Shown here: piece after piece, positions 1 through 4,416 of the stretch
Layout: each line of letters opens with the position of its first letter
How positions within the stretch are numbered: the stretch's first letter is position 1
Virus record (IMG/VR): IMGVR_UViG_2657245112_000032
Coordinates: 1-4,416 of that record
From: a virus
Lineage: Duplodnaviria > Heunggongvirae > Uroviricota > Caudoviricetes
DNA: 4,416 nucleotides
Strand: one strand, 5' to 3'
Translations under genes and position numbers: made by a program
Notes under the pieces: model-generated
Databases searched by the model: none
Told to the model about the DNA's origin: nothing
Seen by the model: the letters and a program-made list of their open reading frames with translations, nothing else

Positions 1-1
1 G

Positions 2-511
2 TTTATTGGTGAAGGTGATGCATACATTCCACCTCATACAGGTCTGCCTGCAAACAGTACCGATATTGCCCCGCCAGATATTCCGGCTGGCTTCGTGGCC
101 GTTTTCAACAGTGATGAGGCATCGTGGAATCTCGTTGAAGACCATCGGGGAAAAACCGTCTATGACGTGGCTTCCGGCGACGCGTTATTTATTTCTGAAC
201 TTGGCCCATTACCGGAAAATGTCACCTGGTTATCCCCGGAAGGGGAGTTTCAGAAGTGGAACGGCACAGCCTGGGTGAAAGATGCAGAAGCAGAAAAACT
301 GTTCCGGATCCGGAAGGCGGAAGAAACAAAAAACAGCCTGATGCAGATGGCCAGTGAGCATATTGCGCCACTTCAGGATGCCGTAGATTTGGATATTGCG
401 ACGGAGGAAGAGGCATCGTTACTGACTGCATGGAAGACATATCGGGTATTGTTGAATCGTGTTGATACAACAGTAGCATCGGATGTTGAGTGGCCAGTCG
501 CCCCGCAATAA
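2..511 (+). CDS. tfa: Tail fibre assembly protein (lambda Tfa / E. coli prophage TfaE-TfaR family), 5'-truncated by the window edge
   Basis: The reading frame is open from position 2 and continues through the listed ORF 95-511 (its first codon at 95 is GTG inside the frame, not the true start). Translation [42 protein letters not shown]...[20 protein letters not shown] matches, from memory, the lambda Tfa family almost along its length. Stop TAA at 509-511. GC about 53%. The true start lies upstream of the window. Confidence 0.85.
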
Positions 512-518
512 AAGGATA

Positions 519-546
519 AAGCCATCGATAGAAATATTGATGGCTT
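519..546. terminator. Hairpin between convergent genes (tfa on plus, acetyltransferase on minus); likely intrinsic terminator, strongest in the minus direction
   Basis: Inverted repeat AAGCCATCGAT (519-529) / ATTGATGGCTT (536-546), 11 bp stem with one G-U pair and a 6-nt loop AGAAAT. On the minus-strand transcript it is followed by a U-rich tail (UAUCCUUUUAUU). It lies 8 nt downstream of the acetyltransferase stop (555-557) and 8 nt after the tfa stop. Confidence 0.5.
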
Positions 547-554
547 CATGTACT

Positions 555-1127
555 CTATTTATACAATACAACACCGCTCTTTTTTGTTATATATGTGCAG
601 TTCGATGGTATATCTTTATTTATAAAAGACATTGCACCTATTTTTACATTATCCCCAATTTTACGTGATAATCCAATGATGCAACAATTAGCTCCGATAT
701 CAACGTTATTACCAATTTTTACTCTTGAACCAGGCATGTCACCATCTACCTGTCCAATGGTAGTATTCTGTCGCAAAACCAGATTTTCACCAGCATCAAC
801 AGCAAAATGAACAACAATTCCAGTATGATGGGGAATTGTTAAACCTTTTCCAATATTTGCGCCCAATCCAATTTCGCAACCAAATCTGTTAATTATATTA
901 TTGTTTAACTTTCTGGCTGCTTTCTTATGTAATTTATTGCCATTAATATACATTTCATTAGCCAGTCTCCACCAGAAAAGGAAATTCCGATTGCGCTGCT
1001 TCTTCTCTCTTAATAGTCGCCAAACATCCATTTTTTCACGCCTGATGATTTCAGCCATCCAGTAGCTCAATAGAGCTTTTGAATTCCCGAAGATGACAAA
1101 GTGAATAGCTATTAAGTAACATAACAT
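555..1127 (-). CDS. Hexapeptide-repeat (left-handed beta-helix) acetyltransferase, CysE/WcaB/NodL-like
   Basis: Minus-strand ORF of 190 aa. The C-terminal half has consecutive hexapeptide repeats ([LIV]-G-x-x-x-x: IGLGAN, IGKGLT, IGQVDG, IGNNVD, IGANCC, IGDNVK, IGAMSF) typical of LbH acyltransferases. Start is uncertain: ATG at 1125-1127 (190 aa) or in-frame ATG at 1056-1058 (MAEIIRREK..., 167 aa); neither has a strong SD. GC about 32%, far below the flanking genes. Confidence 0.75.
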   Translation of the reverse strand: MLCYLIAIHFVIFGNSKALLSYWMAEIIRREKMDVWRLLREKKQRNRNFLFWWRLANEMYINGNKLHKKAARKLNNNIINRFGCEIGLGANIGKGLTIPHHTGIVVHFAVDAGENLVLRQNTTIGQVDGDMPGSRVKIGNNVDIGANCCIIGLSRKIGDNVKIGAMSFINKDIPSNCTYITKKSGVVLYK

Positions 1128-1595
1128 ATTGCAACTGCCTATATTTTTTGGTTTCTATGTTTATATATTGACATTATAATTAAAACAATAATCATCAGTG
1201 TGTTACTGCGTTCCTGCTAAACTAAATCAACGCACAATGTAAACACAAATGTTAATTTTAAACTGAGCGCTAAAGGGATGTCAATATTGTATTGATAATG
1301 AGTTGCAAGATTGCCAACACTTTCTATATTTTTGGATGTAATAATTTATATTTTATCTATTTAGTGTTTCTTTAGACTTATTAAGGATGTCATTATTAAT
1401 TTATGGCTTGCCATTTCTATACATATCTGTTAAAAATTTTGACTTGTTTGTTGAAAATAGATTTAATTGATTGGTTTATTTTTACATGACGCTCTTTAAT
1501 ATAGCTTCAGGTATATATAAGCACAATGCATTATTTCCAGAGGAAATTAACAAAATTGTTAGCTCTTATTTGTTGAGCTTATAGATATTAATTAA
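1128..1595. promoter_or_regulatory. Very AT-rich non-coding region (about 20-30% GC), probable promoter/regulatory region of the acetyltransferase cargo gene and possible H-NS-type silencing target
   Basis: No ORF of meaningful length on either strand and stop codons are dense; sampled 60-nt blocks give 17-32% GC. Candidate sigma70-like elements exist on both strands: minus strand TTGTTT-17-TATAAA at about 1188-1160, plus strand TTGACT (1439-1444)-17-TTTAAT (1462-1467). Such matches are expected by chance in AT-rich DNA. Confidence 0.4.
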
Positions 1596-1614
1596 GGCCC
1601 GATTCCGGGCCTTT
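1594..1614. terminator. GC-rich hairpin, candidate intrinsic terminator (possibly bidirectional)
   Basis: AAGGCCCG-ATTC-CGGGCCTT: 6 G-C pairs plus 2 A-T pairs, 4-nt loop. Followed by TTT on the plus strand and by a UUAAUUAAUAU tail in the minus direction. It sits immediately after the stop (1617-1619) of the minus-strand small ORF and at the boundary between the AT-rich region and the GC-normal operon region. Confidence 0.5.
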
Positions 1615-1616
1615 CC

Positions 1617-1853
1617 TCATTCCGGCTTTTCGGGAAACGTTACTGGAAGGATGGAGGTATCCGTGGATTCGACTTTCTGCGCATAGAGAATCCACTCGGT
1701 TAATTTTTGTTTACCCTGAACGGAAATAATGCCTAGCCGTAACTGTGAGTCCCAGAGCTGAGTTTTATCCCTGACGAGCTGTAGCAGGCTTTGCTTTTCT
1801 TTTTCCGCTTGTTGTCTTTGCATGACCGGTTGAGAAGTTACTTTGCATACCAT
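1617..1853 (-). CDS. Hypothetical small protein (78 aa), divergent from the operon; coding status uncertain
   Basis: Minus-strand ATG at 1853-1851 (MVCKVTSQPVMQRQQAEKEK...PEKPE), stop TGA at 1619-1617, hairpin directly downstream. AGGAGG (complement of 1856-1861) lies only 2 nt before this ATG, which is suboptimal. Several rare codons (AGA, AGG, CTA, CGG). The listed 165-aa ORF 1617-2114 extends antisense through the holin-like gene with an S/T/P-rich translation, so I truncate it to the first ATG after the SD. Confidence 0.4.
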   Translation of the reverse strand: MVCKVTSQPVMQRQQAEKEKQSLLQLVRDKTQLWDSQLRLGIISVQGKQKLTEWILYAQKVESTDTSILPVTFPEKPE

Positions 1854-1881
1854 TACCTCCTGACAACGTAGGAGGGAACTT

Positions 1882-2211
1882 GTGCTTGACACACAGGAAT
1901 TAGCTCCAGTTGCTATTGCGCTCCTGCTTTCAGTAATTGGTGGGATAGGCACGTTCCTGATGGATGTCCGAGACGGTCGCCAGTCTGGCAATTTGTTAGG
2001 ATTGGTTACGGAGATCTTTGTTGCAGTGACAGCTGGCGCGGTGGCGTACCTATTGGGGCAACACGAGGGCTGGGAGTTATCAATTACGTACTTAATGGTA
2101 ACGATAGCCAGCAATAACGGTCATGAGGTGATTTCAGGGATGAAACGAGTGAATATCGATAGCATTCTGAATGTTCTTACAAGTTTGGTGAAAAAGGGAG
2201 GCGGGAAATGA
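1882..2211 (+). CDS. Small three-transmembrane membrane protein, holin-like (class I holin topology)
   Basis: GTG start at 1882 preceded by AGGAGG (1870-1875) with a 6-nt spacer; an in-frame stop at 1861-1863 excludes a longer N-terminus. 109 aa with three hydrophobic segments (LAPVAIALLLSVIGGIGTFLM, LLGLVTEIFVAVTAGAVAYLLG, WELSITYLMVTIASN) and a charged C-terminal tail ending KKGGGK. Loose resemblance to lambda S-family holins by memory. Stop TGA at 2209-2211 overlaps the next start (ATGA). Confidence 0.7.
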   Translation: MLDTQELAPVAIALLLSVIGGIGTFLMDVRDGRQSGNLLGLVTEIFVAVTAGAVAYLLGQHEGWELSITYLMVTIASNNGHEVISGMKRVNIDSILNVLTSLVKKGGGK

Positions 2212-2651
2212 TTGGCTGGGGTGTATGCGTTCTTGCGTTAGCCTTAGCCGATCGCTATTTGCTAAAACGCAAGGACATCACGCACTTAGAACTTGGTGAT
2301 GTGGAAATTAAACCGGGTTTCATCCGGGTGCCGTTCAAATACCGGTCTAAATTCCCGTTTTTGCGCGGCGCAACGGTCAGATATTGGATCCGCGATGTTC
2401 AGAAGCCGACGACAGTGATTGAAGGCGAACAACGTTGTCTGACGTCGGCTGAACAGGGCGAAAACAGTGAATGGTTGTACATACCCACTGAATATATGGG
2501 TAAAGGAGAGCGACTGTGGCATTTCAACGTCATGGTTACGCATGGCGACTCGTTCATTAACCCGTTGTATCGGATTTTCCCTGTTACTCAGCAAATCCGC
2601 AGAAGTTACGTAATAAATCTCGCACAGGATGTGTCAGATGACGAAAAATAA
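2208..2651 (+). CDS. Hypothetical protein with N-terminal signal peptide or membrane anchor (147 aa); candidate holin partner (antiholin-like) or periplasmic component
   Basis: ATG at 2208 overlaps the upstream stop by 4 nt (ATGA). GGGAGG at 2196-2201 with a 6-nt spacer. N-terminus MIGWGVCVLALALA followed by DRYLLKRKD (hydrophobic h-region, possible AxA cleavage site). No recognisable lysozyme catalytic motif. Stop TAA at 2649-2651. Confidence 0.65.
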   Translation: MIGWGVCVLALALADRYLLKRKDITHLELGDVEIKPGFIRVPFKYRSKFPFLRGATVRYWIRDVQKPTTVIEGEQRCLTSAEQGENSEWLYIPTEYMGKGERLWHFNVMVTHGDSFINPLYRIFPVTQQIRRSYVINLAQDVSDDEK

Positions 2652-3240
2652 GTATGCAACGGTCGATTTTGACCAGGTTAATGAAAAGGGGCTGAAATCC
2701 CTTATCGCGGCGATCAATAAAACCGGGGTTACGGTAATTGAGGTTGACTCCAGCAACCGCGCAACAACGAAAGATGGCGTTAAAGTTAAAACCGCAAAGC
2801 TGGTTCTTAACGACGGACAAATTCTTGCCATACAGGTAAACGATACTGGCGATATATCGTCTGTGAAACTGAATGGAAAAGCTATTCCTAACGCTCAGTC
2901 GCCGGATATCAAGACGCTTGGTACCGTCATGGGACAGGCGGCTCGCAAAAACTCCGCAAAATTCCAGAAATCACTGATCGCCAAAGCGAAGCGTGTTGCC
3001 AATCCGGTAGACAAGAAACCGGCAGTTAAATCCAACTTTCAGCGCCTGCAAGAGGCAAAACAGCGGAATGCTCAGGTGGTTGCCGCTTATAAATCAGCTC
3101 AGAACTCGGTGTCTTTCAATCAACAGCAGATCACTGATTTGCGGGGGAAGCTGGATAAGGAGACAGGCCGACTCAATAACGAAAAGGCCCGAAATGGCGA
3201 ACTCAAACGCCGTCTTAAGCAACTGAAAGCAGGAAATTAA
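2638..3240 (+). CDS. Hypothetical protein (200 aa) with a C-terminal coiled-coil/basic region; paralog of the downstream gene
   Basis: Preferred start is ATG 2638 (AGGA at 2626-2629, 8-nt spacer), overlapping the upstream gene by 14 nt; the listed ORF start at 2629 is in the same frame. The C-terminal about 80 aa are K/R/Q/E-rich with heptad-like spacing (QRLQEAKQRNAQVVAAYKSAQ...LKRRLKQLKAGN). The central domain is homologous to a domain in the next gene. Stop TAA at 3238-3240. Confidence 0.7.
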   Translation: MTKNKYATVDFDQVNEKGLKSLIAAINKTGVTVIEVDSSNRATTKDGVKVKTAKLVLNDGQILAIQVNDTGDISSVKLNGKAIPNAQSPDIKTLGTVMGQAARKNSAKFQKSLIAKAKRVANPVDKKPAVKSNFQRLQEAKQRNAQVVAAYKSAQNSVSFNQQQITDLRGKLDKETGRLNNEKARNGELKRRLKQLKAGN

Positions 3241-3241
3241 C

Positions 3242-4243
3242 ATGGAACAGTTCAATATCAATAAAGGGGTGACGATCAAGCCTGGGCTTGACGTGCTTCC
3301 CCCGCCAGTGACTGATGATGAATATCGCGCATTAATGGCCGGTGAGGACCGCTATCTGATGACGGAATCCAACACCCTGGAGGAAATCGAGGCTACGTTC
3401 TTCTATGACACGCCGATCCACTGGTGTGCTACGGATTTACTGGAGGCGATTAGTTCTACTCGTTTGCAGTTACACCGGACCATGCAGGCATTTGTCCGGG
3501 CATTGAACCAGAAGCTGAATGGTACCGGAATCTCTGCGGGGAGTGATAAAACGGGCGATGTGGCCCAGAGCGGCGCGCGCGCGATCGGCGGCGCTGAAAT
3601 TGGTCGGGCACGTAACGTTAACGGGCTGCCGGTCCTGCCAGCCATTATTCCGCTCAGTGATGGTCAGACTATCAGCATTCTGTTTCATAGCCCGACAGCG
3701 GAAAACCGGATCACCAATAGCGATACGCTGGTTGCTTTCCAGTTCTTACTGAATAAAAAAGACGTTACTCACACCGTTGCTCCGATGAGTGGACGTGATA
3801 TGACGCTGGCGCAGGTCACCATGAAACTTGCCAACCTTGCAGAGAAAAACTCGGCAAAATTCCAGCGTGCGCAGAAGAAGAAAAAAGCCCTTGTTGATGA
3901 AATAACCCAACTACAGGCTGACAGTGACCAGAAAGAGGATGCCATGAGCGACCTCGCGGATCAGGTGGCAGCGGTAGAAGGGCAGAAGGCAGATCTGGAG
4001 CAGAAAATTAACGCTGTTGCATCGGAAGCGGATTCTCTTTATGAAGAGAATGAGCGTTTGCAGACGGAGATTGATCAGCTCAATCGCACTGGTGGGCGCG
4101 ATACCATTGCTCCTGCGGGGATGACTGGTGGGTACTCTCGCGCGCTGACGGATCGCCTTGCCAGTATCAAAAATCGTATGCATATGAACGGGGAAGTGAC
4201 GCTCAGTACTGAGAGATCCCCTCATAATTTCCCCAAAGCGTAA
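3242..4243 (+). CDS. Hypothetical protein (333 aa) with a domain paralogous to the upstream gene, followed by an acidic coiled-coil
   Basis: ATG at 3242 lies 1 nt after the upstream stop; AGGA at 3231-3234 with a 7-nt spacer. Contains a Gly/Ala-rich segment (GTGISAGSDKTGDVAQSGARAIGGAEIGRAR), a domain alignable with the upstream protein (LSDGQTISILF...DMTLAQVTMKLANLAEKNSAKFQ), and a long predicted coiled-coil (ALVDEITQLQADSDQKEDAMSDLADQVAAVEGQKADLEQKINAVASEADSLYEENERLQTEIDQL). Stop TAA at 4241-4243. Confidence 0.75.
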   Translation: MEQFNINKGVTIKPGLDVLPPPVTDDEYRALMAGEDRYLMTESNTLEEIEATFFYDTPIHWCATDLLEAISSTRLQLHRTMQAFVRALNQKLNGTGISAGSDKTGDVAQSGARAIGGAEIGRARNVNGLPVLPAIIPLSDGQTISILFHSPTAENRITNSDTLVAFQFLLNKKDVTHTVAPMSGRDMTLAQVTMKLANLAEKNSAKFQRAQKKKKALVDEITQLQADSDQKEDAMSDLADQVAAVEGQKADLEQKINAVASEADSLYEENERLQTEIDQLNRTGGRDTIAPAGMTGGYSRALTDRLASIKNRMHMNGEVTLSTERSPHNFPKA

Positions 4244-4416
4244 CCATGTGTGAATAAATTTTGAGCTAGTAGGGTTGCAGCCACGAGTAAGTCTTCCCTT
4301 GTTATTGTGTAGCCAGAATGCCGCAAAACTTCCATGCCTAAGCGAACTGTTGAGAGTACGTTTCGATTTCTGACTGTGTTAGCCTGGAAGTGCTTGTCCC
4401 AACCTTGTTTCTGAGC

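Follow-up and report, generated by a model that had tools for sequence, protein, structure and literature searches.

The window analysed here is the whole 4,416-nucleotide stretch from position 1 to position 4,416 of a viral genome record (Caudoviricetes; IMG/VR IMGVR_UViG_2657245112_000032), and our subject is the segment at positions 512–1616, which carries an acetyltransferase gene and an AT-rich noncoding tract. By sequence identity, the source of the window is a P1-like phage-plasmid of the pO111_2 lineage: positions 1–4211 are 98–99% identical to P1-like phage-plasmids such as pO111_2 (from E. coli O111:H- 11128) and to phage vB_EcoM-Ro157c2YLVW, and from 1822 onward the window is 98.5% identical to phage P1 itself. 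The window opens with tfa, a tail fibre assembly gene (1–511, + strand, with its first 67 nt preceding the window) that is recognized by the Pfam profile Caudo_TAP (5.6e-43) and is called tfa in pO111_2 and Ro157c2YLVW. Convergent with it is an open reading frame (ORF) of 190 amino acids without internal stops (555–1127, − strand), which matches the PHROG family phrog_2154 and encodes a WcaB- and serine-acetyltransferase-like protein of the LbH (hexapeptide-repeat) type. A hairpin (519–546) lies between the stop codons of the two genes, and an orphan AT-rich noncoding tract (1128–1589) lies on the other side of the acetyltransferase gene. The segment ends with the ancestral U/U' intergenic region of P1 (1590–1616), recognized by its identity to P1, which includes a second hairpin at 1594–1614. 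Beyond it are the 3' remnant of an alternative tail fibre assembly gene, U' (1617–1821, −; Caudo_TAP, 4.1e-18), the P1 late promoter LPdar, and a late operon.

The low-GC stretch is genuine. The guanine-plus-cytosine (GC) content of positions 512–1616 is 32.0%, compared with 49.2% for the remaining window (binomial z −11.4), and the lowest value for any 1105-bp interval within 1617–4416 is 46.6%. The acetyltransferase ORF has a GC content of 35.1% (30.9% at third codon positions) and the tract 26.6%, so the segment differs in composition from the flanking phage genes (35% and 27% versus 47–53%), with values of 50.0% for tfa (2–511) and 47–53% for lydA, lydB, hdf, and darA. The original prediction had described this drop from estimates that differ from the measured values by at most ~3 points, and its antisense LbH acetyltransferase corresponds to the intact minus-strand ORF and its LbH matches.

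The segment joins DNA of three histories

When the window was divided into blocks by pairwise BLAST, parts with three different histories were found within 512–1616. The first block comprises window positions 1–1119/1126 and 678 bp before the window, and is 91–96% identical to P2-like prophages in O104:H4, O111, and O157 chromosomes, as well as 87% identical to a different, unrelated myovirus prophage. It contains the last ~200 codons of the tail fibre gene, tfa (91–95% identical to P2-like prophages and contiguous with the acetyltransferase gene), and the complete acetyltransferase gene, and its homology to the P2-like prophages ends at the acetyltransferase start codon. The second block (1127–1589) has matches confined to P1-like elements. 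The third (1590–1821) is 86–87.5% identical to the U/U' intergenic region and 3' end of U' in P1 (locus L001, 3899–4130; also locus L006, 4001–4232), and the fourth, from 1822 onward, is P1 sequence starting just past lydC. As judged from these alignments, the fibre tip, tfa, and the acetyltransferase gene are one co-inherited cassette of 1.8 kb. What is seen is not the single insertion that had been predicted to lie between the tail-fibre module and the operon: the segment is a mosaic whose acetyltransferase gene forms a continuous stretch with tfa and the fibre tip. The description of the gene as a moron holds insofar as it is low in GC, antisense, accessory, and present in some relatives and absent from others, but it arrived within a tail-fibre cassette and not separately. 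A P1-type dar operon is found in ~453–469 complete E. coli genomes and the segment in 65, which makes the segment accessory; P1 and P7 lack it.

Both of the hairpins that had been proposed to bracket an insertion do fold, but the right one marks no insert boundary. The hairpin at 519–546 has a predicted folding free energy of −16.4 kcal/mol on the + strand and −17.0 kcal/mol on the − strand (z −3.7 and −4.7), with 0 of 200 shuffled sequences as stable. Its core stem, AAAGCCATC/GATGGCTTT, is kept in all P2-like and myovirus copies, a T-rich tail is present on the minus strand only, and the consensus terminator scan did not call it; it is likely to be a bidirectional terminator. The hairpin at 1594–1614 (−14.6 and −16.0 kcal/mol; z −2.0 and −1.8) has a stem, GGCCCG/CGGGCC, that is identical in P1 and pL9-1, and on this identity it is the ancestral bidirectional terminator of the convergent U and U' tfa genes of P1. 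The block structure therefore assigns the first hairpin to the tfa/acetyltransferase cassette wherever that is found, and the second to P1. Within tfa itself, Rfam IS009 matches window positions 276–474 (+) over the full length of the model (192 bits versus a gathering score of 117; E 1.7e-47); the family probably derives from a prophage tfa region and not from an independent RNA gene.

The Cin-invertible C segment of P1 has U and U' at its centre, with 28 bp between them, followed by Sv', cixL, cin, and lydC. The 28-bp spacing is the same in P1, P7, and pL9-1, all without the low-GC segment, and where P1 has these 28 bp the window has 1.1 kb of low-GC cargo between two tfa genes. The U' remnant covers only positions 55–131 of the Caudo_TAP profile, its C-terminal half, whereas a full-length U' (177 amino acids) occupies the equivalent position in the metagenome contig L041 and in plasmid pLH09-a-D. 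In the window lineage, the 5' part of U', Sv', cixL, cin, and lydC are gone, and comparison with P1 places the joint at 1821/1822, where mid-U' is fused to the sequence after lydC with no significant microhomology visible. The joint is 13 bp upstream of LPdar (1835–1853, +), which is intact, with its Lpa box AAGTTACTT and −10 element TACCAT mapped from the P1 annotation by sequence identity. Among relatives, the invertible segment is intact in pLH09-a-D, L041, and two IMG/VR contigs, where one arm consists of the fibre tip, tfa, the acetyltransferase gene, and the AT-rich tract and lies opposite full-length U' and Sv'; pLH09-a-D additionally keeps cin and lydC. The existence of these relatives identifies the window lineage as a deletion derivative that lost the DNA from mid-U' to the end of lydC. 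The cassette was first placed in the middle of the C segment, between two convergent tfa genes, as it still is in these relatives, and the later deletion removed cin and locked the fibre in one orientation. We hold the anatomy and history of the segment, as reconstructed here, with high confidence. A 78-amino-acid ORF at 1617–1853 (−), called 'tail fiber assembly protein' or U' in relatives, is an artefact of the fusion: its 3' 205 nt are the U' remnant, and its 'start' lies inside the LPdar promoter region, on the opposite strand.

The AT-rich tract as a probable promoter and leader

The AT-rich tract is found in 65 of 5426 complete E. coli genomes, on plasmids only and in 0 chromosomal places, as well as in 33 PLSDB plasmids and three phage records (two phages), and an exact-pattern scan of 185,579 species-representative genomes gave no occurrence. 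Searches for a donor, by distant blastn against E. coli genomes, plasmids, and phages and by exact-pattern scans of species representatives, IMG/VR, and metagenomes, returned only P1-like elements. Coding potential is lacking, with 8–20 stops in every frame and a longest open stretch of 42 codons, and no tandem or direct repeats were found in the tract. Rfam gave nothing credible, the lone match being to cyano_tmRNA at 17.9 bits versus a gathering score of 70 (E 0.064).

Two divergent alleles of the gene in P2-like prophages share another leader, ~100 bp long, in which a strong ribosome-binding site (TAAGGAG) precedes a GTG start. P1-like elements have this P2-type leader swapped for the tract exactly at the start codon, which there is ATG. 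A promoter candidate at 1284→1255 (−), with the hexamers TTGACA and TAAAAT separated by an 18-nt spacer, matches the consensus at 11 of 12 positions and is the best sigma-70-like site on the strand of the gene. Its hexamers are identical across five alleles that are themselves 89–100% identical overall, and almost no variation is seen over the ~155 nt from the candidate to the ATG; the distal half of the tract is variable and contains indels. We read the tract as the gene's probable promoter and 5' leader in P1-like elements, where the gene is probably transcribed independently; from this promoter candidate, it would be expressed in the lysogen irrespective of the late operons on either side. 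A promoter region had been predicted in the tract, and a conserved promoter-like site is present there by consensus match; binding of H-NS, which is suggested by base composition alone, is plausible.

Two homopolymer runs in the tract differ in length between copies. A T6 run at 1144–1149 (+), ~17 nt before the acetyltransferase ATG, is one base shorter in the 93% allele, and at a second poly-A/T run near 1480 the window differs from pO111_2 by one A. These differences could be sequencing noise or could affect expression.

The acetyltransferase is closer to WcaB than to CysE

Profile matches and a predicted structure place the protein in the LbH acyltransferase superfamily. The match to phrog_2154 (E 1.9e-83) aligns residues 13–190 with positions 3–181 of the 185-position profile, and Pfam Hexapep scores 24.6 bits, just below its 27-bit cut-off. 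The nearest solved structures, found by phmmer against the PDB, are serine acetyltransferases (1e-13). In an AlphaFold monomer model (mean predicted local distance difference test score, pLDDT, 81; predicted template modelling score 0.80) five N-terminal helices precede the LbH domain, for which pLDDT is 62–78, and Foldseek with this model again ranks serine acetyltransferases at the top (probability 1.00, TM 0.6–0.69). Among NCBIfam models the protein scores below every equivalog cut-off: EpsC 77.5 bits versus 150, CysE 65.6 versus 210.65 for TIGR01172 and 42.2 versus 397 for PRK11132, and WcaB (TIGR04016/PRK10191) ~56.5–56.6 versus 194.65–196. In profile–profile comparison with hhalign, starting from 51 homologues, WcaB is matched with 99.5% probability (E 3e-23, 37% identity) and CysE with E 6e-17 (29% identity). 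By this comparison the family profile is nearer to WcaB than to CysE, with a resemblance to WcaB at subfamily level only.

The conserved catalytic histidine on which the predicted activity hinged is present. H100 aligns with His158 of CysE and with the second histidine of the IHHG motif of WcaB, and is conserved in at least 90% of the 51 homologues, across which the FWWR and RQNTTIG motifs are also conserved. The catalytic motif reads I-P-H-H-T-G, compared with I-H-H-G in WcaB and L-D-H-A-T-G in CysE. Between alleles, the ratio of nonsynonymous to synonymous substitution rates (dN/dS) is 0.07–0.26, with dS up to 0.46, so the gene is under purifying selection; together with the conserved motifs, these values argue that the gene is functional. 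An O-antigen acetylase of the Acyl_transf_3 type (Oac, NeaT, phiV10) is ruled out, since the protein has no match to PF01757 and is modelled as a soluble helical and LbH protein.

Distribution and genomic neighbourhoods

Most of the gene (the segment's 3' 520 bases) is present in 530 of the 5426 complete E. coli genomes, mostly on chromosomes, with O157:H7, O104:H4, O111, and O26 pathogens among its hosts. The chromosomal copies that were sampled lie in P2-like prophages, antisense, between tfa (gene G) and other tail genes. More distant homologues recur beside receptor-binding modules or at prophage edges across many phage types. A 67% identical homologue in a P2-like prophage (E. coli loci L018–L020, 5617–6605) lies between gpU and the tail fibre genes and is followed by an 87-amino-acid tfa fragment and a methyltransferase gene, an arrangement indicating that several cargo genes have been stacked at one hotspot. 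A 69% identical homologue from Buttiauxella adjoins a tail-fibre gene at the edge of a P2-like prophage, a 55% homologue lies at the end of an HP1-like tail module, and a 35% homologue in Hafnia phage yong2 is convergent with tfa and a tail-collar fibre gene. In a Xenorhabdus bovienii prophage (L025/L026, 5001–6393), a 52% homologue directly precedes, on the same strand, a Glyco_transf_25 gene between the integrase and tail fibre genes. This glycosyltransferase gene, of family 25 (lipopolysaccharide (LPS)/lipooligosaccharide type), has a GC content of 31%, and the pair looks like a two-gene surface-modification cargo. In Streptococcus thermophilus phage 9871 (L049, 6007–6534), a 31% homologue called 'serine acetyltransferase' follows the distal tail/structural genes directly, on the same strand and before the holin gene; tblastn found it in 20 S. 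thermophilus phage records including 9871. Further copies are found beside integrases, on a plasmid downstream of pilus-biogenesis-type genes, and as solitary chromosomal genes. The homologue in Citrobacter rodentium phage phiNP bears in the literature only the label 'fitness' (PMC6456863).

A second type of P1-like plasmid (L004/L005, CP056621 and NZ_CP033848; 3021–5058) carries a 36% identical phrog_2154 acetyltransferase (1.6e-77), whose gene overlaps the 3' end of a different tfa. In this variant the motif S-Y-L-N stands in place of P-H-H-T, which leaves the aligned position without the catalytic histidine. Between the tail fibre gene and tfa, the same plasmids encode a protein with a macro domain (Pfam Macro, 1e-19). 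In E. coli O157:H7 86-24 (L007, 4410–6000), the P2-like prophage has an IS3-family pseudogene and plasmid-type parM/partition genes in place of the tail fibre gene that would precede tfa; it must consequently be defective, yet its acetyltransferase gene is intact.

Proposed function and alternative explanations

We propose that the gene encodes an acetyl-CoA-dependent LbH O-acetyltransferase, an old low-GC cargo that is passed on with the distal fibre tip and tfa as a cassette exchanged among P2-like prophages, another myovirus prophage, and P1-like plasmids. Like WcaB, the enzyme would O-acetylate a sugar in an intermediate of an envelope glycan (LPS core, enterobacterial common antigen, colanic acid, or similar) on the cytoplasmic face. 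The WcaB pathway is annotated as acting at the cytoplasmic face on sugars linked to undecaprenyl diphosphate, and the colanic-acid enzymes neighbouring WcaB are annotated as acting on such lipid-linked intermediates once they are already O-acetylated. The altered phage-binding surface would allow the lysogen to exclude phages that use the same receptor, or would present an altered surface antigen. Independently, work on Klebsiella has put forward surface sugars as targets of prophage acetyltransferases (PMC13123978). On the model of WcaB and of NeuO, the capsule acetyltransferase of prophage CUS-3 discussed below, acetylation of an envelope glycan with an effect on adsorption or antigenicity is the most likely function, but falls somewhat short of an even chance. 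The explanation as a whole, which combines the three-part segment with glycan O-acetylation, we consider about equally likely to be right or wrong, and a role in lysogenic conversion is plausible.

Several observations weigh against glycan acetylation or against expression of the gene in P1-like elements. PHROGs labels phrog_2154 as 'unknown function', and the JL22 paper states that it is not known why the gene is present (PMC9603915). No constant operon partner that would name the acceptor was found: the only glycan-related neighbours are the family-25 glycosyltransferase gene in Xenorhabdus and nearby arn genes in Intestinirhabdus, which may be there by coincidence, and most copies are solitary, with many distant homologues standing alone at island edges with no glycan genes nearby. 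Host O types are many (O157, O104, O111, O26, O103), which argues against an acceptor specific to one O antigen. The ribosome-binding site in the P1-like lineage is weak (AGG, versus TAAGGAG in the P2-like copies), and expression there may be low for this reason. Sigma-70-like matches are frequent in AT-rich DNA, with 11 found versus 5.6 expected, and the predicted 5' leader folds no better than shuffled sequences (z +0.65). Instead of functional coupling, the linkage to tail fibre genes could reflect physical co-transfer, or a late-operon end that is permissive for insertion.

The last of these points leads to the strongest alternative, in which the enzyme is a working acetyltransferase, useful to the host or to itself, whose place beside tail-fibre genes reflects only that insertions are tolerated at prophage ends, between convergent tfa genes, and where the late tail operon ends, and whose substrate is unrelated to the receptor. 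Candidates for the substrate would then include small molecules, xenobiotics, signalling compounds, and defence-related metabolites. That many members of the family are solitary at island or prophage edges, or on a plasmid after pilus-biogenesis-type genes, fits with this explanation, as does the inclusion of xenobiotic acetyltransferases among LbH enzymes, with weak Vat/CatB matches for the 36% identical variant protein. 'Moron position 2' of P2 also holds unrelated cargo, in the form of NeaT (PMC3573123) and of the methyltransferase gene found beside one homologue. However, the best profile matches are to WcaB, EpsC, and CysE and not to xenobiotic acetyltransferases, and PADLOC gave no anti-phage defence match for the protein. 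Moreover, homologues again adjoin receptor-binding genes in phages with unrelated tails, Gram-positive siphoviruses among them, and one is paired with an LPS-type glycosyltransferase, which is more than a single hotspot would lead one to expect. We regard positional cargo as unlikely. Z/fun is presumably another occupant of moron position 2.

A true serine O-acetyltransferase, whose gene would serve the lysogen as an auxiliary metabolic gene by raising the supply of O-acetylserine and cysteine or by inducing the CysB regulon, is quite improbable, and CysE itself is ruled out by the profile cut-offs and by comparison of residues. PGAP gives the protein this name, the nearest solved structures are all serine acetyltransferases, and both the catalytic histidine and an acidic residue (Glu for Asp143) align. 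In contrast, the CysE scores given above are far under their cut-offs, the family profile is nearer to WcaB, and the serine-binding residues, which we take to be Asp157-His158 and Arg192-His193 in E. coli numbering, are not conserved: Asp157 is a histidine here (DH to HH), and Arg192-His193 (GDRHP) is replaced by PGSR-V. In addition, the N-terminal helical domain has ~80 amino acids versus ~140, and the protein ends ~35 residues before the CysE C terminus. The database name 'serine O-acetyltransferase' is probably an over-annotation, because the protein is below all equivalog cut-offs, does not conserve the serine-binding residues, and has no CysE C-terminal tail.

A decaying passenger with no current function, beside an AT-rich tract eroded from a neighbouring low-GC gene, is very improbable despite the lack of a recognizable function or homologue for the tract, the weak ribosome-binding site in the P1-like lineage, and a pLH09-a-D copy annotated as frameshifted, because the ORF is intact in hundreds of genomes with its motifs kept, the dN/dS values rule out a pseudogene, the tract varies in its distal half but hardly at all in the promoter-proximal one, and several adjacent pLH09-a-D genes are also called frameshifted, which suggests assembly errors.

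Returning to envelope-glycan acetylation, a bolder extension is that phrog_2154 enzymes are receptor-modifying partners of the fibre tips with which they travel, so that fibre tip, chaperone, and receptor-masking acetyltransferase form an exchangeable 'adsorb-and-exclude' cassette. Such a cassette would move among P2-like, P1-like, and other myoviruses, would have counterparts beside receptor-binding genes in Gram-positive phages, and in P1-like elements would sit inside an invertible host-range switch. We consider this extension doubtful. If true, a gene in ~10% of E. coli genomes would control susceptibility to phages, and possibly antigenicity, through a glycan that is conserved and not serotype-specific.

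The gene is of a kind that is already annotated and noted in the literature, prophage-borne surface-modifying acetyltransferase cargo, and by analogy it probably affects the surface. It occurs in E. coli pathogens and on P1-like phage-plasmids that spread resistance genes, and its usual database name is probably wrong. Envelope-glycan acetylation would bear on phage host range, on susceptibility to phage therapy, and possibly on surface antigenicity, and would explain co-inheritance with receptor-binding modules; a mere cargo acetyltransferase with no link to a receptor would be an ordinary finding. The comparative anatomy shows how the host-range switch of P1 was remodelled, with one arm converted to a P2-type fibre module plus cargo and the invertase then lost.

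The downstream operon and the insertion in darA

The operon downstream of the segment (1882–4208, +) is the P1 late operon lydA-lydB-hdf-darA, driven by LPdar and 98.5% identical to P1, with lydA at 1882–2211, lydB at 2208–2651, hdf at 2638–3240, and a truncated darA from 3242 onward. Homology to P1 stops at 4211. The end of an IS10-type insertion sequence (IS) of the ISVsa5 family (4209–4416; end sequence CTGAGAGATCCCCTCATAATTT) breaks darA at 4208/4209, after ~322 codons, and is matched at 100% identity by IS4-like ISVsa5 family copies in 1029 E. coli genomes. The flanking GCTCAGTA resembles what we take to be the IS10 target consensus. In close relatives darA is intact (1920 bp). With darA interrupted, Dar antirestriction is probably defective in this element, and the insertion may have a polar effect on ddrA and ddrB. 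Four related loci (L004–L006 and L011) carry an IS200/IS605-type TnpB (InsQ) gene antisense between ddrA and ddrB, which is not in pO111_2 or Ro157c2YLVW.

Comparison with known systems

The P1 invertible C segment (Sv-U and U'-Sv' with cin) is the system from which the locus derives: tfa, the U/U' terminator, and the U' remnant of the window are its remains, and relatives keep the segment with the cassette inside it. The window differs in having neither cin, cixL, Sv', nor lydC, in its fixed fibre, and in the exchange of one arm for a P2-type fibre tip and tfa.

A precedent for the position of the gene is found in P2-like phages, where 'moron position 2' lies between the tail fibre gene G and the sheath gene FI, and where CFT073 carries NeaT, an antisense cargo gene of 30% GC for an acyltransferase that is thought to modify the surface (PMC3573123). 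Chromosomal copies of the present gene occupy the same P2 position, are antisense to the tail genes, and have a similarly unameliorated low GC content. NeaT is, however, an integral-membrane Acyl_transf_3 protein (PF01757) of unrelated fold, and it is rare, whereas the present gene is in ~10% of complete E. coli genomes.

CysE is the nearest solved fold, with a helical N-terminal domain followed by an LbH domain and an aligned catalytic histidine. The present enzyme has a shorter N-terminal domain and lacks the C-terminal tail, and its serine-binding residues are not conserved. WcaB is the closest characterized relative by profile, with 37% identity over the LbH domain, a shared His-His motif, and a similarly small size. 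In contrast with WcaB, the present enzyme is below the equivalog cut-off and has an extra N-terminal helical region of ~50 amino acids with a conserved FWWRLANE motif, and its gene is found between phage tail genes on mobile elements, with low GC, outside the colanic acid (wca) cluster.

NeuO, the polysialic acid O-acetyltransferase of the E. coli K1 prophage CUS-3, modifies the K1 capsule, to which related phages bind, and protects the lysogen from K1 phages (PMC3046976; PMC9659370; PMC13001214). Like the present protein, whose dependence on acetyl-CoA is predicted, it is a prophage-borne, soluble, acetyl-CoA-dependent LbH O-acetyltransferase carried as accessory cargo by a temperate phage. 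CUS-3 is a P22-like tailspike phage, whereas the hosts of the present gene are myovirus-type elements with tail fibres. Although the structure of NeuO has been solved, no NeuO chain is among the 34 PDB sequence matches (E ≤ 0.001) or the top 50 Foldseek matches listed, so the two are not close homologues. NeuO is phase-variable through 5' heptanucleotide repeats, which are absent at the acetyltransferase gene here, and such phase variation is ruled out for it, with only one-base differences in poly-A length between alleles in place of a repeat tract. NeuO is the best model for how the present gene may act.

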